Shown piece after piece: positions 6,849-23,060 of a DNA stretch of 64,000 nt. Within the stretch, counting starts at the first letter, position 1, and each line of letters begins with the position of its first letter. Where the stretch lies: NCBI GenBank assembly GCA_963826785.1, contig CAWGYD010000008.1, positions 128,001-192,000 of the forward strand, in the 5' to 3' direction. The stretch is from an uncultured delta proteobacterium. GTDB lineage: Bacteria; Desulfobacterota; Desulfobacteria; Desulfobacterales; Desulfosalsimonadaceae. The notes beneath the pieces are model-generated. The model searched no databases. It had not been told where the DNA came from and was given only the letters and a program-made list of their open reading frames with translations. The translations under genes were made by a program, and so were the position numbers.

Positions 6849-8859
6849 ATGACTCAAGACGCATCCGCACATGATCTGAAAAAGCGCTTCGCCGCACTGG
6901 AAGCCGAACTCGCCGCATGCCGGGACCGGGTTGCGGAACTGGAAACCAGCGAGCGCCAGTACCGCATGCTCATCGAAAACATCCCCGAAATGATCTGGAT
7001 CATGACGGCGGACAAGTTCAAGCTGACTTATCTGAATCCGTACGCCGAAAAAATGCTCGGCTATACGGTGGACGAGATTCTCAACAAATCGTTCCAGGAG
7101 ATCCTGACGCCGGCATCATTTAATTTCGCCGCTCGCTATTTCGTACAGGAACGGCAGAAATACATCGATGACATTCACCGGAAACCCCGGCCGCATATTT
7201 TCGAAATCGAATATATCCGCAAGGACGGATCCACCTTCTGGGTTGAAGTCAACGGGTGCCCCATTTTTGATGAACATCACCGGCTGATACGAATCATCGG
7301 GGTTTCACGGGATATTTCAGATCGGGTGGAAGCGCGGAAGGCGTTGAAAAAAAGCGAGGAAAAGTACCGGACCCTCTTTGAAGATTCAAGAGACACCATT
7401 TATATCACCACCCGGGACGGTCTTTTTGTCGACATCAATCCGGCGGGCCTCGATCTCTTCGGCTACACCCGGAAGGAGATCATCGGCACGGATGTCCGAA
7501 ACATCTACCTGGACGCCGCAGAGCGGAATACCTTCACGGCGGCCATCGAAGAAGCCGGTTTCGTGCGCGATTATGAAATCCAGTTCAAGAAAAAGGACGG
7601 GGTCCCCATCGATTGTCTGCTCACGTCCACACTCTGGCTCGGAGATGACGGCGCCATCCTGGGATATCAAGGGGTGATGCGGGATATCACCTCCCAGAAG
7701 CGGATCATCCGTCAGCTTCAGCAGATCCAGAAAATGGAGGCCATCGGCACCCTTGCCGGCGGCATTGCTCACAACTTCAACAATATCTTGATGACCATCC
7801 AGGGAAATACCTCCCTGATGTTGATGAAAACCGATCCCGATCACCCCCATTACCCGAAACTCAAAATTATCGAGCAGCATATCCAGTTCGGTGCGGATTT
7901 GAGCCGGCAGCTGCTCGGTTTCGCCCGGGGAGAGCAGTCGGAATCCAAGAAGATCCGGCTGAACCTGCTGATCCAGATCAGCGCCAAGATGTTTGCCAGC
8001 ACCAAAAAAGGAAATATCGGTCCACACCCGCTTCGAAAAAGAACTCTGGCCGGTAATTGCCGATCCGGGCCAGATGGAACAGGTATTTCTCAACCTGCTG
8101 GTCAATGCCTGGCAGGCCATGCCGGACGGGGGCGAGGTCCATATCGAGACAGAAAACCTGACCTTAAACCCGCACCAGATTTCCATGTACCGGCTGCCGC
8201 CGGGGCGCTATGTCAAAATCGCGTTCACCGATACCGGAATCGGGATGGATGAACGGACCCGGGAAAAAATTTTCGAACCCTTTTTCACCACCAAGGAACA
8301 GGGCCACGGCACCGGTCTCGGGCTGACCACCGTATACGGGATCATTCAGAGCCATGGGGGCTATATCGCCGTCTACAGCGAACCGGCCAAGGGAAGCACA
8401 TTCTCTATTTACCTGCCGGCTGCCGAAGATTTGGTGAAAGTGGAAAAGCCCGCACCTCCCATTCTCATCAAAGGAAATGAATCCGTTTTGATAATCGATG
8501 ATGAAACCATGATCATCGATACCGCACAGACCATGCTGGCCGAGTTGGGATACACCGTTTACACCGCGGACAGCGGGAAAAAAGGCATAGAGGCCTTTCT
8601 CAATCTTGCGGAGCAGGTCGACCTGGTGATCTTAGATATGATCATGCCCCACATGAGCGGCAATGAGACCTTTGAACGCTTGAAAACCATCGACCCGGAA
8701 GTGAAGGTGCTGCTGTCCAGCGGATATGGTTTGAACGGGCAGGCATCGGTCCTGATGGAAAAAGGATGCCGGGGGTTTATTCAAAAGCCCTTTACGATCC
8801 GGGAACTCTCCAGAAAAGTAAGAGAGGTGCTGGAGAGCGCCCCGGTGGAAATGTCATAA
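6849..8859 (+). pseudogene. PAS-PAS hybrid sensor histidine kinase-receiver, split by a +1 frameshift (or a sequencing error)
   Basis: ORF 6849 has two PAS domains and the H-box (GTLAGGIAHNFNN). ORF 7993..8859 continues with KEISVH, QVFLNLLVNA, DTGIGM, FFTTK, GTGLGL and a receiver (LDMIMP). The frames join at ACC AAA AAA G GAA (8001-8013). Confidence 0.85.
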
Positions 8860-10197: not shown

Positions 10198-10579
10198 CTA
10201 TCGCAGCTGATTGAGCACGCTTTGTTGATGCATCACAGATCAGGTAATTTCCCTGATCGGATTTATGTGACCCTGCTTACCCCCAAATATTTTAAAGACA
10301 AACAGGGGCTGTTTGCTGAACGGAATTACTGGGGGAAATTTGAAAAGTATTTCTGATTTGGCAGAACTCAAAGCTGATTTAGAACTCTATCCCCTTCCCT
10401 TTCTTAACCACAGCATAGAAACCCTCTTGGGACGAGTAAATTCGCTAATTTTGCGATGGGTAACTTTTGAAGAACTGCTCAGTCTGCCTAACCGGGTAAG
10501 CCACAACGTCCCTGGAAAATACATTCGAAATTGGTACCAGATCTTTAATGAAATAGGTATGGGATTTTATTATGAATGA
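10198..10579 (+). pseudogene. 5'-truncated, frameshifted gene remnant at the island's left edge
   Basis: One frame reads LSQLIEHALLMHHRSGNFPDRIYVTLLTPKYFK...NYWGKFEKY (10198-10350) after an in-frame TAG. It continues in the next frame as SDLAELKADLEL...LILRWVTFEEL... to TGA 10579. No convincing start codon. Confidence 0.5.
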
Positions 10580-10682
10580 ATATTAAGTTAATGATTTTAT
10601 AAATTTTAGCTAAATTGCTTTACTTCAAATAAACGCTGATTTTTTTGTCGGTAATTTATCTTCTGATCAAAATGGATAGAAA

Positions 10683-11597
10683 TCAAAAATTGCTGAAAGA
10701 GGATTTATTCACGATTTCCCAAGCCGGCTGTTCAATTCTAACGCTAATTTTTTTTAAATCAAAAACAGGGACGGCAAAAATCTTTGCAAATTTTGGATGA
10801 TAATAAACATAGGATGCAAGATAGCTATGCATTCGTGAATCCAAATCATCCTTCATGTTATGGTTGCTTAACATTAATTTGAATGCTCCTTTGTGCTTAT
10901 CTGGAATATTCACATCTACAAACCAATAGTATAACTCACGATCCAACAATTCTCGTTGCCCCATTGCTATTACTATATATTTCTTACCCTTTTTCACTAT
11001 AAAAGAGAAATTACCATCAGCATCAGACTTGGCGGTTTGTTCTGATAGGGAAAGGATGCCCGAAATAATGGAGGACATTATTGAATCATGGTACTTTTCA
11101 AGTGAATCGATTTTAGCCAAGCAAGCCTCATATCTTGGTTTCAGCTCAATTCCTTTTTCGACAAGTATAGATTCAACAATTTGAAAATCTTCAAGTGCAC
11201 ATTTAAACTCTGCATCACCATGCGATGTTTTATAAATTTTCTTTAAGTTTTCATCAATAGTGGCATACTTTTCTAAAACTTGTTTCTTGTCTTTTAAAAC
11301 ATGTTCTGCAGCCAAGTAATCCGGCCAAAACTCATAATACGATTTATTCAGGTCATCAAATTCCTTTAATGTTTTTTCGCATTCCTTTTGATAAGTAATC
11401 GAATCTTTACATAGCTTCGTATCAAAATATGAATTTAATTTTTCTACCGATATAAGATGAACAGGTACAAGACCGAGTTTTATGTTTTGCCCCCCACCGG
11501 TCACGATAAACACGTTGCCTTTCAAAGTAATTTCATTATTACCGCATCCAATTAGAAAGACAACCACTGCCCAAATAGTTATAAAACGAAAAAACAT
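10683..11597 (-). CDS. Hypothetical lipoprotein (beta-sandwich interrupted by a coiled coil)
   Basis: Signal peptide with lipobox LIG-C; GNVFIVTGGGQNIKLG, then a long helical stretch, then AKSDADGNFSF...YIVIA (carboxypeptidase-regulatory-like strands). Confidence 0.75.
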   Translation of the reverse strand: MFFRFITIWAVVVFLIGCGNNEITLKGNVFIVTGGGQNIKLGLVPVHLISVEKLNSYFDTKLCKDSITYQKECEKTLKEFDDLNKSYYEFWPDYLAAEHVLKDKKQVLEKYATIDENLKKIYKTSHGDAEFKCALEDFQIVESILVEKGIELKPRYEACLAKIDSLEKYHDSIMSSIISGILSLSEQTAKSDADGNFSFIVKKGKKYIVIAMGQRELLDRELYYWFVDVNIPDKHKGAFKLMLSNHNMKDDLDSRMHSYLASYVYYHPKFAKIFAVPVFDLKKISVRIEQPAWEIVNKSSFSNF

Positions 11598-11699
11598 ATT
11601 GCATTCCTCACAATCCGGTTGTTATTTTCGATTCATAATAAAAAATCTAATGATTATTCGCAATAGGATATTATTTATAACAATGCCCGGCGATATCAA

Positions 11700-12746
11700 A
11701 TGAATAAAATTATTAAATTAACGGCCATCATATTAATGGTTCTTGCAAGTAGCTCTTATGCTTTTCAAATAGAAACACGAGAACAAATCGTGGAAGATGC
11801 TGTTAAATTTTGTCCTCCGGACTTAAGAACTTTCTTAATGCCGAATATTTCAATTTTGAAAGGCAAAATGTCTTTTGCATCGCATATGCAGCGGCCTATT
11901 GATTCACTTTTACTAAAAGAAATATCGACATCATTAATAGAGGAAATAAAAAGCGGGACTGATTATAACTATAATACGATAAGCAAATTTGGATTGGTTG
12001 CCTTGTTCATTACCGAAGCCATAAATCCATATTTTTCGGCAAATAGCATATCTCTTTCAAATAATAGAGCCAGACAGGTTTCGTATAAGGGTATCATCGT
12101 TATCTATGACGGTTACCAACCTGTCCCAGACCCTGAATTTAAATTCAAATCCCTTACAGATAAATACCAGGACAGTTTGGGTTATATAAAACCTTCTTTA
12201 TTAGATTCAGCTTACAATGATGCAGTTAATGAAGTTTCAGATTTCTTCATTTCTATATGGCAAATGGCCGGGAAGCCTGTAAATGATTTAGTCTCAACCG
12301 GCTTCACGATTGATCACCGCTCGGGACGATTATTACAGGCCAATATTTCAAATCAAAAGAGAACTGAACCTACAGACGTTCAAGTCGATAAGGACGTATC
12401 TAATCCCAAGGGTACTTACTGGCAAGTATACCAAAATGCAGTTGATGCTTCAAGTAACCATGATTGGAATGGATGGGAAGCTCAAATGAGAATGATTAAT
12501 AGAGAAACTGATTTCGCGTTGCCAGAGGATTTCTGGCAAAATTATCATAGAGCAATAAAATCAATAAATAAAGGAGATTGGCTTTCTTTCAAAGAATACA
12601 TGGAAAAGATGGATCAGGAAATCGGACTGGATTCATCCAGTGCATTTTACAACGCATACGATAAAAGTCTCAAAGCTTTATCAAATCGGGATTGGCGGGA
12701 GTACGAATCACAATTCAGCCAAATGGAAGGGCTATTGGGGAATTAA
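11700..12746 (+). CDS. Secreted protein: degenerate S1/P1 nuclease / Zn-phospholipase C-like domain plus three 38-aa repeats
   Basis: Signal peptide ending SYA-F; FQIETREQIVEDAVKFCPPDLRTFL, FGLVALFITEAINPY and AVNEVSDFFISIWQMAGKP match the S1/P1-PLC pattern without its His ligands. Confidence 0.6.
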   Translation: MNKIIKLTAIILMVLASSSYAFQIETREQIVEDAVKFCPPDLRTFLMPNISILKGKMSFASHMQRPIDSLLLKEISTSLIEEIKSGTDYNYNTISKFGLVALFITEAINPYFSANSISLSNNRARQVSYKGIIVIYDGYQPVPDPEFKFKSLTDKYQDSLGYIKPSLLDSAYNDAVNEVSDFFISIWQMAGKPVNDLVSTGFTIDHRSGRLLQANISNQKRTEPTDVQVDKDVSNPKGTYWQVYQNAVDASSNHDWNGWEAQMRMINRETDFALPEDFWQNYHRAIKSINKGDWLSFKEYMEKMDQEIGLDSSSAFYNAYDKSLKALSNRDWREYESQFSQMEGLLGN

Positions 12747-12751
12747 TTTAG

Positions 12752-13411
12752 ATGATGTATCACTTTAAACCACCAATTACTTGGAATCCCGTTAGAATTG
12801 CCTTTTTATTTGGTTTATTTTTTATATTTACAGAATCCATCGTATCGGCGATTAATAGTGATGAGATTTTGATTAAAGGATTTATAAATAGATATGGGAA
12901 ATACCCTATTATACAAGTTATTTTAGCATATAATGATAATGATATCACCCTCGATGTCAGGGGTAAACGGATAATTTACAGTGGGAATCCTGATGAAAGT
13001 TATGTCAATGTCCATACGATACTTTGTGATTTGAAAACGATTCATCTTACACCTAAGAAGCTAGAAAAATTAATTAATGACCGAATTAAACCCAATACTT
13101 TGGTTTTATTTAAACAGATGTCTCGTAATCTAAAAAGTGAAGCATTAGAGAGCCGAAAAGATAGAGAAAAAGGGCTTATCGATTCCTTTAAAAGAGAAGA
13201 CAATATAAGTATGATGATAGAAGAGGAGAAGAAACGACTGCTAAATAAAAAAGAGAAGCTGGAAGAAGAAATTAAAAAGGAGGCATTACTCATTAAACAG
13301 GAAGATCAACTCCGAAAAGAAAAAATCAGGCTCATAGAAAGGAAGCAGGTCATCGAAGAAGAAATCAAAACTGAAGCAGCAAGAATAAGAAGAGAAAATT
13401 CATTTAATTGA
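12752..13411 (+). CDS. Hypothetical membrane-anchored or exported coiled-coil protein
   Basis: Hydrophobic N-terminus (IAFLFGLFFIFT); charged C-terminal coiled coil; starts 5 nt after the upstream stop. Confidence 0.7.
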   Translation: MMYHFKPPITWNPVRIAFLFGLFFIFTESIVSAINSDEILIKGFINRYGKYPIIQVILAYNDNDITLDVRGKRIIYSGNPDESYVNVHTILCDLKTIHLTPKKLEKLINDRIKPNTLVLFKQMSRNLKSEALESRKDREKGLIDSFKREDNISMMIEEEKKRLLNKKEKLEEEIKKEALLIKQEDQLRKEKIRLIERKQVIEEEIKTEAARIRRENSFN

Positions 13412-13603
13412 TGTGATGCCCTTCGCAGGGCCGTATTGCGCTGATAAAATTCCGTCCTAATCTTCCTGAATATTTCTATCTTCTCAGAAAAGCCGAAATT
13501 CCCCTCATTAAATTTTCTTGATGAACTTTTTTTATTACCATATGTTAATGCATTATCATTATTTGATTTTTGAAATTTTTTCACGCGAACAGGGGTCAAA
13601 GAT

Positions 13604-15502
13604 ATGGCTGAAAAATTCTGGCAATTAATTCCTGTGAATAGTGAACTTCAACCATTCATAATTAATTCATCTCCCGCTATATTAGGAAGATCTGCTTCCA
13701 AATGTGATATTTTAATCGATGATGCGTCAATCGCAGATTCACACATTCAATTTGTTCTGAATAAAACTGGTTTACAAATATATGATTTAAATAGCGAAAA
13801 CGGAATAGCCATTCAAGGGGAAAAGGTAAAAAATAGAATCGAAATCAAAGCCAGAAGTGCAAAGCAAGGATTATCGCTTGTCGCCGGAAAAATAGAATTT
13901 ATTTTAAAATATGGTGAAATATCCACTGATACTTACACTTCTCCCCTGAAAAGGGAAGATGAATGGTTTTATAATCATAAAGGGAAAAAGTACGGACCAT
14001 TGAAAAAGGAGGAATTGTTCAAAGCCGCTCAAAATCATCTGTTATTTCCGACTGATGATGTATGGAATTCGAGCTTTGATTATCAATTAAAAGCTTTCGA
14101 AATTAAAGGGCTATTAGAAAAGGGTTATTCTCCAATTATAGATGATGACAAGGAAATTATATGTCCATATTGCTGGAATTCATTTAACCTTGAAGATATT
14201 CGTTTTGTATCTTGCCATCCAGAGTTGTCTGGAGATTCTGTCTTAGGTGAAAGTGAATTCCAAAGATTTATCCCTTTTCATTTCAGACCGAAAGGAAAGG
14301 CATTAGATTCTAAGGGAATGCTTTGCCATGAAAAAGCATGCCCGATTTGCCACATTGCCATCCCGTCTGATCTGCTTATTAAAACCCCTCCCATTTTTAT
14401 TTCATTGGTTGGAGTCCCGGCAAGCGGAAAATCATATTGTTTGGCCGCTACCACATGGAATCTGAGAACCATCTTTAACCAGCATTTCAATATGGATTTC
14501 GTTGATGTCGATCCCCTAATAAATCATTGGATTACTGAATATGAATCATTGCTTTTCAAAAATGAAAAAATTTTGAAAACACCATTGGAGGCATCTCATG
14601 TCTATCGGCAGGCAAAAATAAATGGCGTAACGGCGATCCTTCCGCAACCATGCATGTTCTTTCTTAAATCTTATGAAGATATCCAGGCCGCCAATAATGT
14701 TAACCGGGTGCTTGTATTGTACGATAATGCAGGTGAGCATTTTCAGCCGGGATACGATTCTGCAATTACTCCCGTCACCAGGCATTTAAGCCGTGCCGGC
14801 GGGATCATTTTTCTTTTCGATCCATCAGCCGATCCGCGAATCGCAAAGTTTATACCGGAAAACGCAGATATCCCAAAAGGAACTGACATTCAAAAACAAA
14901 CAGTGCTGTTAAATGAGATGATCGTTCGGCTTAAAAATCATTTGGGCCTTACTGCAGAGGAACGCTACCAAAAACCGATTGTTTTCGCGATTTCAAAATC
15001 GGATTTACTTCATCAATTCAGCGAACTCCATGATAATGATGAGCCATTAACCATTAAATCCAATACGAATATCAATGCCCTGAATCTATCTAAGATTGCG
15101 AGGATTTCATACTGTACAAGAGACTTTTTGAAAAAATATGTCCCTGAAATCGTCAACCTGATTGAATCGTTTGCCGAAATGATAATTTATCTACCCATAA
15201 GTGCTCTTGGTCATGAGCCAAAAGATTTGGGACATGAGAATAAAAATATAAAGCCCTCTTTCATTGAAATCCCCATTTTATATATTTTATCCAAGCTCGG
15301 ATTCATTCCTTCTGCAAAAACATTAGATGAAATCCTTCCAGTTAATCAATTTGAGGTCAACAACCGGTATTTTGAATTGAAAGACCCGGTTTCAGGTAAA
15401 ATTCTGCAAGTACCGCTTATATATGCCGGACATACCCTCTATTATCCTGGAACCAGAACCAAAATTCGGATACCCGAACTTCCGCATGTCAAATGTTTAT
15501 AG
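13604..15502 (+). CDS. FHA-GYF-Zn ribbon-TRAFAC GTPase (double-GTPase-2-like)
   Basis: FHA (LGRS..CDILIDD.SIADSH...DLNSENG); GYF_2 (WFYNHKGKKYGPL...DDVW); CPYC...CPIC; G1 GVPASGKS, G3 YDNAGEHF, G4 SKSD, G5 ISALG. Confidence 0.8.
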   Translation: MAEKFWQLIPVNSELQPFIINSSPAILGRSASKCDILIDDASIADSHIQFVLNKTGLQIYDLNSENGIAIQGEKVKNRIEIKARSAKQGLSLVAGKIEFILKYGEISTDTYTSPLKREDEWFYNHKGKKYGPLKKEELFKAAQNHLLFPTDDVWNSSFDYQLKAFEIKGLLEKGYSPIIDDDKEIICPYCWNSFNLEDIRFVSCHPELSGDSVLGESEFQRFIPFHFRPKGKALDSKGMLCHEKACPICHIAIPSDLLIKTPPIFISLVGVPASGKSYCLAATTWNLRTIFNQHFNMDFVDVDPLINHWITEYESLLFKNEKILKTPLEASHVYRQAKINGVTAILPQPCMFFLKSYEDIQAANNVNRVLVLYDNAGEHFQPGYDSAITPVTRHLSRAGGIIFLFDPSADPRIAKFIPENADIPKGTDIQKQTVLLNEMIVRLKNHLGLTAEERYQKPIVFAISKSDLLHQFSELHDNDEPLTIKSNTNINALNLSKIARISYCTRDFLKKYVPEIVNLIESFAEMIIYLPISALGHEPKDLGHENKNIKPSFIEIPILYILSKLGFIPSAKTLDEILPVNQFEVNNRYFELKDPVSGKILQVPLIYAGHTLYYPGTRTKIRIPELPHVKCL

Positions 15503-15554
15503 ATAATATTTTAACTTTAGAAATTGCGCTGCTCTAAAATGGCAAGGGGAAGAA

Positions 15555-17573
15555 ATGATTTTTGAGTTAATTTATACTTCCGTCCCGAAAGGCTTAAAAC
15601 CTGGTTCAAGCGGATACACGACAGTCGCCTGTACCGAGGGAATGCCGGCAAAGTATGTCAGCCTTTGTGAATCCCTTAGCGGGTATATTCATTTATATGC
15701 AGACCTGAACGATCCGAATTACCGATTAAATCCTGTCGCATACAGCCATTATAAATTTTCGGTAAACAATGAAAAAATATCCGTCCTCTCCCGGGTTTCT
15801 TCTTCAGGGGCTGATTATAGCGGCAGGGCCAATAAAATTGCCCATCATATTGTTGTCCTTCAGGACGAACAACATTTGATTGGACCCGCCGCACTCATGA
15901 ATCAGCCCGGATTATTTGTAGATGAATGGAATCGAGAACCTCAGATATTGCCCAAAGGCCGCATTGCTTTTCCAGAAAACGAAATAAAATCCTATTTTGC
16001 AGAGGAATGGGAAAATGTTTTGGGGGATGCGGGTGCTGCCGGAGTGCTTGCACAGAAAATCTTAGATAATGATAAAACCCCGGCATTCATTCTGTTCGAA
16101 CCTGGAACGAACCTGCTGCAACTGATCATCGAAGCAATGGATCTTCTTCCTCTGGAGCAACAATGGGCGACGACCTTCAACACGTATTTTGATCCCACCA
16201 TAAAACCTATTGATTCTGAATGTATCGTGCGATGCTGTGTCCGGAATTCAAAGCACTTGAATTCATTTCCAGATGCATTGGTAATGGATTTACCGCAAAA
16301 AAAGATGATAGGGAAAATACCGAAAGATGCAGAAATTTACGAGTGTGCGCGAACTGGAAATCCGCCCTCCTGGCTGCGGCCCAAGAAAGACACCGATACA
16401 GAGACGTTTATCGAAGGACTGTGGGAGTCTGATCAAAGGTCACCATCTCCTCGCAGGGCTTCGCCAATAAGTCAGAAACATCCAACTTCAATTATAGAAC
16501 CCCCCACAAAGAAGAAATCTGACTTTGAATTTTATTTGTGGTCAGCTGTAATCATTCTTTTATTTTTGATTTTTATCTACTTTCCAATCAAAAATTGGTT
16601 AGCTCCGGAATCGAACAAGAATCAACCTAACGAAAACGGGCAAATTGATTCTACGCAAAATGAAGAGAAACCAGTTAATAGTGGTGAAAATGAGACATTA
16701 ATGCAGTATGCTCCTCCCCCAATGAACACCGGACAAGTAAATACGGCTCCTCAAAGGAATGAAATGAAAGTTACCATTCTTTACGCAGAAAAAAAAAATG
16801 ATAATGACGAAAATATAAAGAGTAATGAAGTCATAATTGATAGACGAATTGAATTCACACAGGTAAAACAAGTTTTTCTTTATGATAATGAAAGGATTAT
16901 TGCAGCGAATATAGAGGAAAGGCCATCCGGCGGAGGAAACCAACACCTCATATCTACAGGGGAGTCTAAAAGCAGTAAGAGCAGAATTTGGGTAATAAAT
17001 GGGAAAACACATATCTCATTAATGGACCCCTTTTTCGCAATTTTTATCAAAATATCAGATGATGGTCCTTTTCTAATATGGATTAAGCCTATTAAAATTA
17101 AGTTTGAAAATTCAACTATCGAAGAAATTACGACTGTGAAAAAATTTATCAAAGTTTTGCATGATCATAAGATTCTTAAAGCTGAAGCTTATAACGAAAA
17201 TTCAGAATTGGAAAAGCAAGATTTAGGCAATCAAACATGGGATCAATTATATGAAAACTTGAAAAAAATATATGATTCGGTAACCTGTGAAATAATACAA
17301 GAGTTAAATCAAGAGATAAATGGTTATTGTAGGAATCGGGAACCTGAGAATAAGGAATTATGCCAATACGTAAACGGTATAGAGGAAATTAAATCTGAAG
17401 ATAAGAATAAAGATTTATCCAAGACTATTCAAAAGATAAAGTACTTAAAGATTGATAATGATGATATCAAAAGTTTGATAAATAAATTTGAAAATAGGAG
17501 AATTTATTGCGAACTATTTCCAAGACATGAACAAAGAGAGATATCTATGCAATTAACTGAGATTATAAAATGA
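15555..17573 (+). CDS. GTPase-associated protein 1-like (GAP1-N2/GAP1-M) single-pass membrane protein
   Basis: ELIYTSVPKGLKPGSSGYTTVA, DYSGRANKIAHH, GDAGAAGVLA, LIIEAMDLLPLEQQWATTFNTY; TM FYLWSAVIILLFLIFIYFPI (~16530-16589); divergent C-terminus. Confidence 0.7.
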   Translation: MIFELIYTSVPKGLKPGSSGYTTVACTEGMPAKYVSLCESLSGYIHLYADLNDPNYRLNPVAYSHYKFSVNNEKISVLSRVSSSGADYSGRANKIAHHIVVLQDEQHLIGPAALMNQPGLFVDEWNREPQILPKGRIAFPENEIKSYFAEEWENVLGDAGAAGVLAQKILDNDKTPAFILFEPGTNLLQLIIEAMDLLPLEQQWATTFNTYFDPTIKPIDSECIVRCCVRNSKHLNSFPDALVMDLPQKKMIGKIPKDAEIYECARTGNPPSWLRPKKDTDTETFIEGLWESDQRSPSPRRASPISQKHPTSIIEPPTKKKSDFEFYLWSAVIILLFLIFIYFPIKNWLAPESNKNQPNENGQIDSTQNEEKPVNSGENETLMQYAPPPMNTGQVNTAPQRNEMKVTILYAEKKNDNDENIKSNEVIIDRRIEFTQVKQVFLYDNERIIAANIEERPSGGGNQHLISTGESKSSKSRIWVINGKTHISLMDPFFAIFIKISDDGPFLIWIKPIKIKFENSTIEEITTVKKFIKVLHDHKILKAEAYNENSELEKQDLGNQTWDQLYENLKKIYDSVTCEIIQELNQEINGYCRNREPENKELCQYVNGIEEIKSEDKNKDLSKTIQKIKYLKIDNDDIKSLINKFENRRIYCELFPRHEQREISMQLTEIIK

Positions 17574-17584
17574 ACAGGTGAAAA

Positions 17585-20479
17585 ATGTTCCCCCCTCCTG
17601 ACCTGATAAGGCAAATTCAAAAAATTTTGGATTCGGAAGACCTCTCTATCCCTGAATACAAGGAGGTCGCCCGGCAATTTCAGGAACAATATAATCTTGC
17701 CAAAGCGAGGATACTGAAATGTAAGTCTCTTATTTCAGAACGAAGGCGTGAAGATGCAGTAGCGGAAGCACTGAAGGACCCTGATTTAAGAGAGATAAGC
17801 AGCAACTTGCATTTCAAAGAACTATTAAAATGGAAAAATATTTGCCAGGAACAGAACTGGCCCATACCGGAATTGTATGAATCTCAATTTAATGCGGCCT
17901 TACAGGATGTTTTTTCTTCAGACAATAAAATTTTTCCGTTGCTCACGAAATATAGGCGGGCTGCCCTTAAAAATGACTTCAGACGCTCTGTTCAGATTTT
18001 AAGACAAATAAAAAAGACAGACTGGTCCAACAAAAAATGGGATGAGGATCTCAAAGAATTTGAAAAAAGCCGAATGGCGGAGATTCGCAATCATTTCGTT
18101 TCGGCAGTTCGCAATCGTGATCATGACTATATCGCCTATTTGCTAATGGAATTAGAAGAAGAATGGTCAATTCCACGGGACGATCTTTTGTATAAAGAAA
18201 TAAAGGAGCATGTTTTAAATCACAAGAAAAAGGAGGTGATGCGGAACGGAAAAGAAATCTGCGCCAGAATGGTAAAAGCCTATAGGGCCAAGGATTTCTC
18301 TGCTGTCGAAAAAACAATCGAAGAGTATGAAAGTTTAAGAAAAGATCCGCTTTTTGATAATCAAGAAATGGATCGAGCATATATCAAAATTTCTTTTTGG
18401 ATTGAAACGGTAAAGAAAGAAAATGAATTAAAGGAGGCGGCTGCAAGGGAAAATGAAAGCTGGAGCGAGGCGATTTTTATACTTGAGCAAAATTTGAAAA
18501 TGAAAAATGTCAAAAATGTAATGAATTGCCTGAAAGAATTAGAGCAGTACTCTGGTAAAATAATACCGCCGGAGCTTGGAGCCGAAGCTGATGCACTGAT
18601 TAAGAAATGGAAATTTAAACGGAAGGTCACCTTCAGTCTGGTTATTTTAGTGTTCATTTTGTGTGCCGGCTTAGCGTTGGCGGTGACGAGATATCATCAA
18701 ATTCAGGACTCAACCCTGGCTGATTTGGAATCGGCATACAAAGCGGAAGACCTTCCACATTTTTTAGAAATATTAAAGAATTCGGAGAATACGCATCGAT
18801 TTACCTACAATTCAAATGAAATACAAAAATGGGCTTCCAAGATACCGGATCTCACGGCCATAGTTGCAAAAAAGCGAGCTATTTTTGAAGAGACGATTAC
18901 ACGAGTTAAGCAAATGCAAGATAATGATTTTTATGGCGATGAAGAAAAGGTTGAGCAGTTGCTTCATGCCGCAGAAATAAATGCTGTGGATAATGCGGAT
19001 AAAGGAATAATAGCGTCTATAAAAGAAGCGTGGGAAATTCACAAAGATCTGATTATCAATCAAAATGACAGGAATCTCAATAAGATTCTAAATGCAGTTT
19101 CTATCGAAATCGAGAAAGCAGAGACCTCCCTGGACCATATTCATTATATTGAGGCAAACGGGTACCTTTTTGAAACTGAGAAATTATTGATCCAAGCAGC
19201 TGAGATTGAGAATGTTTCGCCAAAGCTTACAGATGACATGAAAAAAATTCGGAACAAATATGAAAATCTAAGGTCTGACCTGCATCCGAAAATCAAGCAG
19301 CTTGAAATTATTTCAGGGGCACCAACTTTATCTGAATATTTAACTGAACTTAAAGCATATGTAACCGCCCTACCCGACGATCCGCTAAGCAGGTTAATGA
19401 ATTCGATAATTTCAGATGAAAAAAATTATTATGACCTTATTTCCATGCAATCTTATAATCCTGCAAACCCTTTCTGGTATCCAGTTGCTGAAATTTTCTC
19501 CGAGATCAAAGATAATATTTCTACGGTCAAAAAGGATATCACGAATCTTCAAGCCGATAAATGGTATACGGATTTATGGGAATACCCTTTGATTCCCGCC
19601 TTTAATAAAGGCAATAAGAAGGTATTCTCCGAGGGCAACCTTGTTAAAAAAAACAACGATGATGGCGTTGGGTGTTTTACAGGGTTTATGTATGTTTCGT
19701 CTTCCAGTGATTCGGAACCGGAATTCGTTCAAGGAGAACTCATCACAGCATATTTTGATACAACTAAGAAGGTTGAAAAATTAAGTCATTGCAAAATTTT
19801 ATATAATGATTTCGAAAAAATTTTGGAAGCCCCTCCAGATCTGTTTGCCGAAACAATGTTAACCCAAATGCAAAACCTCCTTAATGAAGATCTGCATCCT
19901 CTCTTAAAAGTTTCGGTCATGAAAAACTTGGTTCGCTCATTTACGGATTTAATGGAAGATAATGCGATGGAGGATTGGGAAGATGTATTGTCAGATTTAA
20001 ATGGTTTCGAATCTCCTGTCCATTGGCTCTGTTTTCTAAATCCAGCTCTTGAAAGTGGTAATAAGCGCGCCAAACGCATTCTGGATAAACATTTTGAGAA
20101 AACAAACATTATCTCGACACAAAAAGCTAAACTTGAGCTGATCCGAAAATGCTTGAAACGCTCGATTAAATGGGTTGGCAGCGCCTCATTTGAAGGGAAT
20201 CAAGAAATTTTATGGAAACAATCCAATATCCCCAGCGAAACATGGGTAGTTCGGGCATCCAGTAAGCCCAGTATTTATCTTGCACAGGAAATTAAAAATG
20301 AAAAATTAGTCTTTGATTATGTGAGTTATCTTCCTGGTGAACCGGTTTTTGCCCCGGATGATATGAAGACTTCCCGTGAAATTCTGAAAGAGGTTTTTTC
20401 GAAAAATGAATTATCTTTCGAAAATCATCTATCCGTTCCATCAATATGGCCTATTAATCTAAAGGCCAATGATTTGTAA
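17585..20479 (+). CDS. Large alpha-helical single-pass membrane protein, unknown function
   Basis: 964-aa ORF; charged helical N-terminal ~345 aa; basic stretch KKWKFKRK followed by TM VTFSLVILVFILCAGLALAV; ~600-aa predicted periplasmic part. Confidence 0.8.
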   Translation: MFPPPDLIRQIQKILDSEDLSIPEYKEVARQFQEQYNLAKARILKCKSLISERRREDAVAEALKDPDLREISSNLHFKELLKWKNICQEQNWPIPELYESQFNAALQDVFSSDNKIFPLLTKYRRAALKNDFRRSVQILRQIKKTDWSNKKWDEDLKEFEKSRMAEIRNHFVSAVRNRDHDYIAYLLMELEEEWSIPRDDLLYKEIKEHVLNHKKKEVMRNGKEICARMVKAYRAKDFSAVEKTIEEYESLRKDPLFDNQEMDRAYIKISFWIETVKKENELKEAAARENESWSEAIFILEQNLKMKNVKNVMNCLKELEQYSGKIIPPELGAEADALIKKWKFKRKVTFSLVILVFILCAGLALAVTRYHQIQDSTLADLESAYKAEDLPHFLEILKNSENTHRFTYNSNEIQKWASKIPDLTAIVAKKRAIFEETITRVKQMQDNDFYGDEEKVEQLLHAAEINAVDNADKGIIASIKEAWEIHKDLIINQNDRNLNKILNAVSIEIEKAETSLDHIHYIEANGYLFETEKLLIQAAEIENVSPKLTDDMKKIRNKYENLRSDLHPKIKQLEIISGAPTLSEYLTELKAYVTALPDDPLSRLMNSIISDEKNYYDLISMQSYNPANPFWYPVAEIFSEIKDNISTVKKDITNLQADKWYTDLWEYPLIPAFNKGNKKVFSEGNLVKKNNDDGVGCFTGFMYVSSSSDSEPEFVQGELITAYFDTTKKVEKLSHCKILYNDFEKILEAPPDLFAETMLTQMQNLLNEDLHPLLKVSVMKNLVRSFTDLMEDNAMEDWEDVLSDLNGFESPVHWLCFLNPALESGNKRAKRILDKHFEKTNIISTQKAKLELIRKCLKRSIKWVGSASFEGNQEILWKQSNIPSETWVVRASSKPSIYLAQEIKNEKLVFDYVSYLPGEPVFAPDDMKTSREILKEVFSKNELSFENHLSVPSIWPINLKANDL

Positions 20480-20517
20480 TTACTTTAAGATCACCCATAA
20501 TTACAAAAGAGAAAAAA

Positions 20518-21378
20518 ATGACTGATATCCATAGAAAGCAATTGGTGAAAATTCTCGAATGGCAGAGAATGGACATCGAAGGCCGTTTGAAGTTTAAAGG
20601 TGGAAAATACACAGACGTTAATTTTTCTTTATCACTTCTATTCGGGCTGATCTTGTTTTCTATTTTCTATGGGACGGTGATGGCGACTAAATATCCTCCC
20701 ATATATGATTTTTTCTTAAACAGAAGTATAACACAGCCATTCACAATGTTCTTTTCCTGTTGGGCGATATCAATTCTCTTTTTTAAATGGCAAAAGCTCC
20801 TTTTCCAAGAAAAAGCACTGGGCTTGATGATTGTTCCCCACTCACATGATTTCGAGCTTAATGCAGCATCGGCAAAGGATATTCTTGAAAGAATGCATGG
20901 AATTGTTGACAAAGTCGAACACTTTACCCTTTTAAATCGGATTGAAAGGGCATTATCCAATTTGCACAATATCGGCATGATCACCGATGTGTCAGAAGTA
21001 TTGAGATCTCAGGCCGAAAATGATGAAGACCATATGGAATCCAGTTATGCCTTGGTGAGGGGTTTTATATGGGCCATCCCTGTACTTGGGTTTGTCGGCA
21101 CAGTTTTGGGATTGTCAAAAGCTATCGGCAATTTTGGTGAAGTTCTTGGCTCTGCAGGAAATTTTGAAAACTTGAAAATCTCACTCCAAAGTGTCACTTC
21201 AGGATTGTCAGTTGCATTTGATACGACATTATTTGCACTGCTTGCAGCTTTAACAATTCAATTGATTTTAATCACCTTGAAAAAAAGGGAAGAGGATTTT
21301 TTGGATGCATGCAAAGAATATTGCCATGCAAATATTATAAGTAAATTGAGGCTTTCTAATTCCTCTGTCATAAACTAA
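20518..21378 (+). CDS. MotA/TolQ/ExbB proton-channel family protein
   Basis: Signature WAIPVLGFVGTVLGL and GLSVAFDTTLFAL; two further N-terminal hydrophobic helices. Confidence 0.9.
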   Translation: MTDIHRKQLVKILEWQRMDIEGRLKFKGGKYTDVNFSLSLLFGLILFSIFYGTVMATKYPPIYDFFLNRSITQPFTMFFSCWAISILFFKWQKLLFQEKALGLMIVPHSHDFELNAASAKDILERMHGIVDKVEHFTLLNRIERALSNLHNIGMITDVSEVLRSQAENDEDHMESSYALVRGFIWAIPVLGFVGTVLGLSKAIGNFGEVLGSAGNFENLKISLQSVTSGLSVAFDTTLFALLAALTIQLILITLKKREEDFLDACKEYCHANIISKLRLSNSSVIN

Positions 21379-21388
21379 TGCCAGATAA

Positions 21389-22072
21389 ATGAGAAAGAGA
21401 CGAGCGCATAAAAAAGATTTACCAATAAGTTTTTTTTCATTTCAGGATATTATAACTTGCCTTGTGGGCATTTTAATAATTCTGACGTTGATCATGGGAA
21501 TTGAAATCCCCAATTCAGTATCGCTTTCGTGCGAAAGCATGCAAACTGATATTTCTCAAACCTCGGATAAGGAACAGGATAACAATGCGAATATATTCAA
21601 TGAGGCCAGAAAAAAGATCAGAATTGATAATTTGAAATCAAAATTAAATCAGATTGAATTGGATTACACCCGCGAAAAAGTTGTTTGGGAATTGTTAAAT
21701 AAGGAATTATTTGAACTGAAGGATAAATATCAAGATATATTGACCGACAGAAGAATTTTCCTCATCCCAGGTGAGACTAACGATAAAATACCTCTGATCG
21801 TGGTATGCTCGTTATCCAGCATAGCCGTAAGTCATTTAAACAATGCAACTGCATTAGCTACTTTCACAACCGATCGAGAAGGAATCAATAACTTTTTCGC
21901 ATATGTATTAAATAGGGAAAAGGATAATGAATTCTTTGTAATTATGATTAAACCTTCAGGAACCGATTACGCCATGGATCTCGTTTATTTTATACAAAAT
22001 GCGGGTTTTGAGGTTGGTTATGATGCTCTTGAAGAGGACTATTCCCTGGCTCTAAAGAATGACCATGAGTAA
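21389..22072 (+). CDS. ExbD/TolR-like subunit 1
   Basis: Basic N-terminus, TM with Asp (ISFFSFQDIITCLVGILIILTL), coiled coil, C-terminal alpha/beta domain (FFVIMIKPSG...GFEVGYDAL); directly follows the MotA/ExbB gene. Confidence 0.7.
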   Translation: MRKRRAHKKDLPISFFSFQDIITCLVGILIILTLIMGIEIPNSVSLSCESMQTDISQTSDKEQDNNANIFNEARKKIRIDNLKSKLNQIELDYTREKVVWELLNKELFELKDKYQDILTDRRIFLIPGETNDKIPLIVVCSLSSIAVSHLNNATALATFTTDREGINNFFAYVLNREKDNEFFVIMIKPSGTDYAMDLVYFIQNAGFEVGYDALEEDYSLALKNDHE

Positions 22073-22796
22073 AAGAGGTGAAGAGCATCCCAACAGTTTT
22101 GATCTGCTTCTTGATACGATTTGCAATGCCTTTGGAGGAATCATCCTCGTCTCCCTATTGATGTCCATCTTAATTTGCGCAGGAAGTAAGGAGGCGGATG
22201 AGAAGGCAACCGAATTGAGTCCTTCCCTACACTCAACCCCAAATAATGATCCGAAAAAGTTATCGTGCGAAATTGAAGATTTTAAAAAGAAAAGCGATGA
22301 TATTCTTTTATCAATCAATGCTCTCAAAAATCAAATCACGACACTAAATGAAGAAATCGCAATAAAAAAAGCGTCCAGATTAAGGCGCCTCCGCCTACCT
22401 CGCCTGCGGGAAGTGACAGGCAAAAGAACCATCGTCACAGCGATTTATAATGGTAAGTTTTATATATTCCACGATTTACAAGATAAAATTCACGAACATG
22501 ACAACTCTGATGCCCGTGTAATCGAAGATAAGGATAAGATAACAATTCGGCCGTTTAAAAACAGAGGGCAACCAATAATGGAAAATGCCGAAAATTCAGG
22601 AAAATTGAATGCGGCCCTCAAAAATCTTAATCCGTCCCATGAGTATATACTTTTTTGTGTTTATAAAGATTCATTTGCCGAATTCAACCATGTAAAAAAA
22701 CTTTTTGTAGATAAAGGATTTGATTACAATTGGATAATTTGCTCTGCCGATGAAGATATTAAACTCATGAAGGCGCAGCATGTGAATGTACAATAA
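22059..22796 (+). CDS. ExbD/TolR-like subunit 2
   Basis: TM with Asp (SFDLLLDTICNAFGGIILVSLL), coiled coil, C-terminal YILFCVYKDSFAEF...GFDYNW; overlaps the upstream gene (alternative start 22065). Confidence 0.7.
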   Translation: MTMSKRGEEHPNSFDLLLDTICNAFGGIILVSLLMSILICAGSKEADEKATELSPSLHSTPNNDPKKLSCEIEDFKKKSDDILLSINALKNQITTLNEEIAIKKASRLRRLRLPRLREVTGKRTIVTAIYNGKFYIFHDLQDKIHEHDNSDARVIEDKDKITIRPFKNRGQPIMENAENSGKLNAALKNLNPSHEYILFCVYKDSFAEFNHVKKLFVDKGFDYNWIICSADEDIKLMKAQHVNVQ

Positions 22797-23060
22797 AATT
22801 TGGCATTATCTAAAACCTGAAGACGCGGTTAATCAAAGTGAAGGCCAACCCCCGATTTTTAAAAATGGATTTAGGCAAGGCAATGACGTCTTGCCTCATC
22901 ATCATCGATGCAACGTCAGCCGATAAAAAGCAATTCATAGGAGCTCTTATCAGATAAGGACCATTCATCGACACCCCCACTTTTTACTGGCAACTCAACT
23001 GGCCCCATATGCCAAACGCGTCTTATGGCAATTCCTTGCATCGAGAGAAATGATGAAGTG

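Follow-up and report, generated by a model that had tools for sequence, protein, structure and literature searches.

The six genes at positions 13604 to 22796 of the window, a 64,000-nucleotide stretch of contig CAWGYD010000008.1 from an uncultured delta proteobacterium of the Desulfosalsimonadaceae (hereafter the host), form an operon that joins a predicted GTPase switch of the GAP1-N2 type to a MotA/ExbB-type motor. The first three genes encode the GTPase, the GAP1 protein, and a large transmembrane (TM) protein, BIG, together referred to as the core. The last three encode the MotA-type A subunit and two B subunits, D1 and D2. The names BIG, D1, and D2 and the terms type A and type B were coined for this analysis. 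We estimate a probability of about one half that the operon encodes an envelope platform that is gated by a GTPase, has an exchangeable output for transmitting force, and resembles in its working the myxobacterial Agl-Glt machine and not Ton, Tol, or Zorya. The reading is based on which genes are present and which active residues are conserved, on the inheritance of the genes together, on the dependence of the motor on the core but not the reverse, on the swap of outputs, and on B-subunit stalks that co-vary in length.

All six genes are intact and lie on the + strand (Table 1), as described by the first-pass annotation of the window. The intergenic gaps are 52, 11, 38, and 10 nucleotides, and D1 and D2 overlap by 14 nucleotides. 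The GTPase contains an FHA domain (E 1e-9) and a DO-GTPase2 domain (29 bits, cut-off 27). GYF_2 scores 22.7 bits on the host protein, under the cut-off of 25.8, and passes at 34.2 bits in the close homologue L113. The motif residues of G1 (GxxxxGKS, K276), T326, G3 (DNAGE, D374 and E378), and G4 (KxD, K465 and D467) and residues C187, C190, C246, and C249 are all intact in the host copy and are kept in 43–46 of 46 homologues. In particular, the Walker B glutamate E378 is present in 45/46, and the two CxxC pairs of the predicted zinc ribbon in 43–44/46.

GAP1 is composed of GAP1-N2 (residues 1–133, 81 bits), GAP1-M (residues 151–235), a Pro/Ser-rich linker, a TM segment (about residues 327–345), and a periplasmic part. 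GAP1-M scores 23.4 bits, just under the cut-off of 24 that homologues pass. The Pfam scan returned no GAP1-C match at E ≤ 0.1, the presence of that model in the library being unchecked, and residues 346–672 have no usable match in the Atlas. Pfam and the conserved cysteines bear out the annotated pair of an FHA-GYF-zinc ribbon GTPase and a GAP1-like TM protein, with GYF_2 and GAP1-M below cut-off in the host copies. Hydropathy places a single TM segment in each of GAP1, BIG, D1, and D2.

The A subunit belongs to a distinct MotA/TolQ/ExbB subfamily (type A). Its pore motif consists of P188, G191, G194, T195, and T237, and both threonines are present in 80/80 homologues. A weak match (E 0.21) aligns T237 with the TM3 threonine of E. 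coli TolQ. The TM aspartates of the B subunits are conserved as well (D20 of D1 in 75/75 homologues and D19 of D2 in 71/72). We use these counts in place of an 83/83 count that is circular, its rows having been chosen by the Asp motif. Homologue alignments accordingly confirm that the catalytic and motor residues are conserved. D1 and D2 are paralogous (profile–profile match 99.7%, E 4e-25). In the D1 model (predicted local distance difference test score, pLDDT, 85), the TM helix is followed by a coiled coil some 60 residues long and then by an alpha/beta head. Its superposition on E. coli TolR (5by4) gives a root-mean-square deviation of 3.0 over 84 aligned residues with 20% identity, the highest identity among the top rows. 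When solved structures were searched by sequence, D1 and D2 matched coiled coils only, and no match to MotA reached E ≤ 0.01. The label 'ExbD-like' given to the two partners holds for the TM aspartate and the structural match, but not for a profile match.

If D1 and D2 form an in-register heterodimer, their stalk lengths, measured from the aspartate to the head, are expected to co-vary, as is seen. The Pearson correlation is 0.92 over 81 loci. On the MotA tree, the Spearman correlation is 0.60 over 40 non-overlapping pairs, and 16 of the 20 informative pairs, in which both stalks change, agree in sign. Both stalks are about 50 residues shorter in the host operon than in the copies from the Planctomycetota–Verrucomicrobiota–Chlamydiota (PVC) bacteria. 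Some D1 homologues carry long C-terminal extensions (L041:10852-12621, L059, L067, L050, L066); the one scanned, from L041, has a trypsin-like domain.

The BIG model (Table 1) shows a conserved helical cytoplasmic N-terminal third, a TM segment at about residues 348–366, a periplasmic rod of three-helix bundles, and two small beta-containing domains. BIG, D1, and D2 match no Pfam family above cut-off, fold searches with the whole BIG model return only generic helical matches, and the Atlas matches of BIG are unnamed Verrucomicrobiota clusters scoring under 0.9. One genome of the host's order, G182, holds a complete operon and, in addition, a 1134-residue fusion (L094:5033-8437) of a diverged MotA with the TM and periplasmic part of BIG. 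The fusion connects the cytoplasmic end of MotA to that part of BIG. A 1094-residue protein, P0124, was considered as a second such fusion and rejected.

Table 1 Features of the operon and its island in the window
Feature	Positions	Strand	Length (residues)	Basis or content
FHA-GYF-Zn ribbon-DO-GTPase2	13604..15502	+	632	Pfam and residue conservation
GAP1	15555..17573	+	672	Pfam, hydropathy
BIG	17585..20479	+	964	Predicted structure, pLDDT 86
MotA/TolQ/ExbB-family A subunit, distinct subfamily (type A)	20518..21378	+	286	MotA_ExbB 43.5 bits (Pfam)
B subunit D1	21389..22072	+	227	TM segment with Asp20, coiled coil, putative TolR-like C-terminal domain (model)
B subunit D2	22059..22796	+	245	D1 paralogue; TM segment with Asp19, coiled coil, putative alpha/beta head
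AT-rich island	10200..22900 (approximate limits)			Contains the operon and three unrelated upstream open reading frames

To follow the motor across genomes, we scanned species genomes with a MotA alignment and took the best 80 of at least 583 confirmed stretches; 74 of the 80 titles name Planctomycetota or Verrucomicrobiota, including Lentisphaeria. Among the 46 motor-anchored loci with at least 9 kb upstream, the GTPase is found in 43, GAP1 in 44, BIG in 46, and a GYF-TM gene in 44. D1 and D2 are both present in 60 of the 61 loci with 3.5 kb downstream. The locus profiles were built from the surveyed loci themselves, and single-sequence searches with the host proteins gave nearly the same picture. 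In whole genomes, where the type-A motor is defined by a MotA match at E < 1e-90, the GTPase accompanies it in all 6 genomes of the host's order, 15/16 Lentisphaeria, 14/14 Planctomycetia, and 1/2 Verrucomicrobiae. The first-pass annotation had named rare co-occurrence of GTPase/GAP1 genes with the motor trio as a finding that would count against it; instead, 36 of 38 genomes with the type-A motor also hold the GTPase, and in the Planctomycetia it lies within about 10 kb of the motor in all 14. In the host's order, the seven of 401 genomes with a MotA match (E ≤ 1e-40) all fall among the 11 with GAP1-N2, four of the seven being from one genus and so not independent. The type-A motor is sporadic (14/121 Planctomycetia, 16/121 Lentisphaeria, and 2/101 Verrucomicrobiae genomes sampled, or 2–13%), and a housekeeping machine of all PVC bacteria is rejected on these counts.

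The usual gene order in relatives is GTPase, GAP1, BIG, GYF-TM, MotA, an optional GYF-TM-vWA gene, D1, and D2. In the host operon, GYF and FHA are carried on the GTPase, and the separate GYF-TM gene is missing. Thirteen loci have a TM protein of about 210–240 residues, without a Pfam match, directly upstream of the GTPase (for example L011:1514-2146, L031:1261-1920, L137:9265-9918, and L143:963-1673). Within the host's order, a single genus has operons that are split or contain inserted genes, although their open frames are intact (L090:12121-13764 in G349, L093:11890-12768 in G370, and L091:12587-16117 in G182).

The view from the GTPase is different. Among 80 GTPase-anchored metagenome loci, 22 extend at least 8.5 kb downstream; all 22 contain GAP1 and BIG, and 12 contain MotA. 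Five of the other ten have a PilM-like gene next, and five have only GYF genes within range. The motor is present in 14/25 Planctomycetia, 15/46 Lentisphaeria, and 1/5 Verrucomicrobiae genomes with the GTPase. We examined 20 Lentisphaeria GTPase regions: 11 continue with a PilM-like gene (10 of them also with a PilO-like gene), 3 stop after BIG, 2 continue with a GYF-like gene, and 4 are cut by the contig end. Eight motor-less Planctomycetia regions comprise six with GTPase-GAP1-BIG-GYF alone, one that is cut, and one with other neighbours. The core, with a motor, a PilM-like output, or no output beside it, therefore has at least three configurations. The link between GTPase and motor drawn in the first-pass annotation is thus one-sided: the motor is almost always accompanied by the core, but the core often lacks the motor, which is an optional output. 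Where all six genes occur, they are conserved and inherited together, but the candidate 'obligatory six-gene unit' is rejected, because the core is frequently found motor-less or with PilM-like genes.

In the PilM variant (L191:1761-11775, L194, L197, L198, L203, and others), an FHA-GTPase, a short soluble GAP1, and BIG lie upstream of the output. The motor is replaced by a PilM-TM fusion, a PilO/GspM-like gene, and a TM gene without a family. All 11 PilM-like proteins tested score above the Pfam cut-off. For the gene that follows, PilO or T2SS-M matches are weak and below cut-off in 5/7 cases and are seen in 0/3 at a stricter threshold, and the third gene has no family match. In a midpoint-rooted tree of 78 GTPases, from which loci with neither output were left out, the 18 PilM-type loci (including three duplicate pairs) form one clade with support 1.0 inside the motor-type loci. 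A single clade within the motor-type loci indicates one replacement event. GAP1 has its TM segment in 33 of the 36 motor loci. In all 18 PilM-type loci, by contrast, it has lost both this segment and the periplasmic tail.

Three observations point indirectly toward coupling of core and motor: the one-way dependence, the MotA::BIG fusion in G182, and the loss of the GAP1 anchor where the motor is replaced. Other observations weigh against the proposed platform. The core lacks a motor in 10 of the 22 informative GTPase-anchored loci and in 11/25 Planctomycetia, 31/46 Lentisphaeria, and 4/5 Verrucomicrobiae GTPase genomes. Of 13 loci with neither output, 9 likewise keep the GAP1 TM segment. The fusion is known from G182 alone, its MotA half lacks the second pore-threonine motif, and no further example turned up in a search of longer proteins. 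An S-x3-H motor-binding helix occurs in 0/60 GAP1, 2/70 BIG, and 0/16 vWA-gene TM segments, and no outer-membrane partner was identified. In addition, the match of the D1 head to TolR (Z 7.9) is tied with those to unrelated RNase H-like folds, and the co-variation of the stalks could stem from the width of the periplasm alone. Finally, G349 and G370 have the operon spread over more than one contig, with MotA beside unrelated genes.

The motor-less cores raise the alternative that MotA-D1-D2 is a self-standing cassette, attached to and co-regulated with a GTPase-GAP1-BIG-GYF operon but physically separate from it. Two further observations favour such an arrangement. A sister motor subfamily with a zinc ribbon and a helical tail (E 1e-51 to 1e-72), found in 17 Planctomycetia and 4 Lentisphaeria genomes, mostly occurs without the GTPase, and a motor relative in G255 lies among kinase and FHA genes. 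We nevertheless regard two separate modules as unlikely: the type-A motor is almost never found without the core, all tested parts are retained where the operon is split (GTPase, GAP1, and BIG in both G349 and G370), and a MotA::BIG fusion is known. The sister-subfamily proteins (P0121, P0123-P0126) have an N-terminal zinc ribbon and a helical C-terminal tail and reach 1094 residues. In G255, the sister MotA (450 residues) lies among FHA-kinase, kinase-FGE, Ig-domain, and FHA-sigma54 activator genes (L096:4246-14473), and GAP1-N2 is on a separate contig.

In a GTPase-gated platform, the zinc-ribbon GTPase and GAP1 would form a nucleotide switch on the inner face of the membrane. GAP1 and BIG would serve as bitopic scaffolds reaching into the periplasm, and the GYF and FHA domains as adaptors. 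The output would be a MotA-type pentamer around one D1 and one D2, with an in-register coiled coil that puts two TolR-like heads in the periplasm. The switch would determine when or where the platform assembles. Ions flowing past the aspartates would then drive mechanical work, done either on the envelope or at a surface contact, comparable to AglRQS gated by MglA. Motors of the MotA/ExbB type have a 5:2 stoichiometry, and GYF domains bind Pro-rich peptides. By analogy with these families, the complex may likewise be 5:2, conduct protons or sodium ions, and bind its Pro-rich linkers through GYF. The core may also touch the motor physically, with the signal passing from switch to motor, and the whole may act in contact sensing or envelope remodelling.

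The switch half is known from prediction. Kaur, Burroughs, Iyer and Aravind (2020, PMC7159879; this and the other sources cited are compared through the portions of their text accessible to us) predicted GAP1-N2-type DO-GTPase systems computationally, including a planctomycete form with a GYF-pair gene. The host operon shares with them a zinc-ribbon TRAFAC GTPase, the Walker B glutamate, a downstream TM-bearing GAP1-N2 protein, and an association with GYF. It differs in that FHA and GYF are fused to the GTPase, the outputs are a motor or PilM-like genes, and a helical bitopic protein of 960–1040 residues stands in place of an FNIII-repeat partner. Pfam finds no FNIII match in any of the six open reading frames, and BIG is mostly helical. 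The operon is therefore classed as a variant, not as a typical GAP1-N2 DO-GTPase system. The main text of PMC7159879 contains no mention of MotA, ExbB, or TolQ, although its figures may list such neighbours.

Agl-Glt is the parallel drawn for the proposed mechanism, by analogy and not by shown homology. Its predicted layout, in the accessible part of PMC11761067, is a pentamer with an AglQ-AglS heterodimer, zinc-ribbon, GYF, and FHA control domains, and a small GTPase. AglRQS (PMC11761067, PMC3169522) and the host operon thus have in common an A subunit paired with two distinct, putatively TolR-like B subunits and a control layer of zinc ribbon, GYF, FHA, and GTPase. In contrast, the host GTPase is a DO-GTPase2 and not MglA, the host B subunits have long coiled-coil stalks, and the GltG/GltJ TonB-C transducer and the outer-membrane Glt genes are missing from the island, to which the search was confined.

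With ExbBD-TonB and TolQR-TolA, the operon shares the MotA_ExbB domain, the pore threonines, the TM aspartate, and perhaps a TolR-like head. It differs in having two paralogous stalked B subunits and no SHLS transducer, receptor, TolB, or Pal. Outside flagella, most A/B motors power processes at the outer membrane. Such family knowledge, together with the periplasm-spanning rod of the BIG model, would suit a Ton-like energiser of outer-membrane uptake or export in which BIG or GAP1 is a non-homologous TonB. We consider this very improbable, because a TonB domain, an SHLS motif, and a receptor are all missing from the island and no recurrent receptor-like family is among the flanking clusters listed. 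In addition, the TM sequences of GAP1 and BIG are not conserved and lack SHLS, which argues against Ton/Tol-type coupling. PMC12204202 describes PVC motors encoded in TPR-tolQ-two tolR-vWA loci, with a pair of tolR-like genes and a vWA transducer that has SHLS. In our loci, by contrast, histidine is present in 0/16 vWA-gene TM segments. The word 'GTPase' does not occur in the accessible text of that paper.

Zorya shares with the operon an A/B-type motor and a mobile, patchy locus. ZorA has a long cytoplasmic tail, ZorB has an OmpA-like domain, and the effectors are ZorC, ZorD, and ZorE. The host A subunit, by contrast, is tail-less, its B subunits have no OmpA-like domain, and effector genes are absent. 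The ZorA model scores 18.7 bits on the host MotA against a cut-off of 100, and PADLOC finds no ZorC, ZorD, or ZorE in ten open reading frames in and beside the island. The missing transducer, receptor, Pal/OmpA, and Zor effectors support the earlier statement that the system is none of Ton, Tol, and Zorya.

A dedicated anti-phage or anti-invader system is nonetheless an alternative, in which GTPase-GAP1 would threshold the response and the motor would sense envelope damage, as ZorAB does, or depolarise the membrane. GAP1-N2 systems are predicted as conflict systems by Kaur et al. (PMC7159879), the spread is patchy, the operon arrived on an AT-rich island, and accessory domains vary among relatives (PrsW, RDD, trypsin, vWA, and Ig). 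We find this alternative doubtful, for the operon has no nuclease, helicase, or other effector, and matches to ZorA and ZorB profiles are weak (E 2e-4 to 0.1) and limited to the shared TM regions of MotA and D1. PADLOC matches at E ≤ 1e-8 occur in 7 of 142 open reading frames flanking 37 loci, two of them generic kinases, in a scan that excluded five long frames and had no background control. No relatives were found in the viral contigs searched, and the PilM/PilO-like swap better suits an assembly platform. The anti-phage role first suggested thus gains no positive evidence here, with the effector missing and defence-like neighbours few.

The host operon was probably acquired. Its GTPase, GAP1, BIG, MotA, and D1 have the same three nearest relatives (L091, L092, and L113) among 55 complete loci, and these three are placed among PVC sequences. 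Tree distances between the operon genes correlate at 0.58–0.86, which reflects shared history and is not proof of interaction. The MotA gene is single-copy in the host genome, and a sample of 40 relatives from its family and order yielded no copy. Its best named protein matches carry the labels Desulfobacterales and Desulfamplus, so that the host itself probably belongs to the sulfate reducers of that group. The shared nearest relatives, AT-rich composition, and sporadic occurrence point to movement of the operon between genomes as a unit.

The AT-rich island noted earlier is evident in composition: its guanine-plus-cytosine fraction is 0.368 over about 12.7 kb (about 10.2–22.9 kb), against 0.551 for the genome and 0.459 for the first percentile of 1079 12-kb genome windows. 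As to its content, the six genes were correctly given, but three further open reading frames lie upstream (10683-13411): 10683-11597 (−), 11700-12746 (+), and 12752-13411 (+). They are AT-rich and have hydrophobic N-termini, one being lipoprotein-like. They match no family above cut-off and have no counterpart in related loci, on which ground they were rejected as parts of the system. Pfam and PADLOC scans agree with the annotation that no TonB, receptor, Pal/OmpA, flagellar, or nuclease family is present among the island frames scanned. No tRNA, integrase, or convincing flanking or attachment repeat was found at the island, and promoter and terminator counts are at chance level. Further upstream, a PAS histidine kinase with a receiver domain is divided between two overlapping frames (window positions 6849-8252 and 7993-8859) that look frameshifted.

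The cluster is real and conserved, and the combination is apparently unpublished. No earlier description was found, as the first-pass annotation had stated, nor any paper on PilM coupling of the GTPase core, in a search whose coverage is thin for subscription journals; two preprints, in their accessible text, name DO-GTPases in passing, and PMC12505986 was also drawn on in part. Whereas the switch half was predicted in 2020, the motor output of a GAP1-N2-type system and the evidence that the output is exchangeable are apparently new. Association with a motor supplies a concrete output for a GTPase class known by prediction only. It also adds a heteromeric, long-stalked ion-driven motor without a TonB/TolA-type transducer, and the PilM variant demonstrates a natural exchange of an ion motor for pilus-assembly-like genes. 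The host version is compact (six genes, 9.2 kb, adaptors fused to the GTPase, short stalks) and convenient to clone, and single-residue changes in it can tell switch from motor. We tentatively suggest that GTPase-GAP1-BIG may be a general nucleotide-gated docking platform of diderms with interchangeable outputs, either a PilM/PilO-like alignment complex or a heteromeric ion motor whose axle is a coiled coil. Such a platform would have arisen independently of the myxobacterial focal-adhesion machine that it parallels; PVC bacteria would use it to make contact with other cells, to move over surfaces, or to remodel the envelope, and sulfate reducers would have received it from them.

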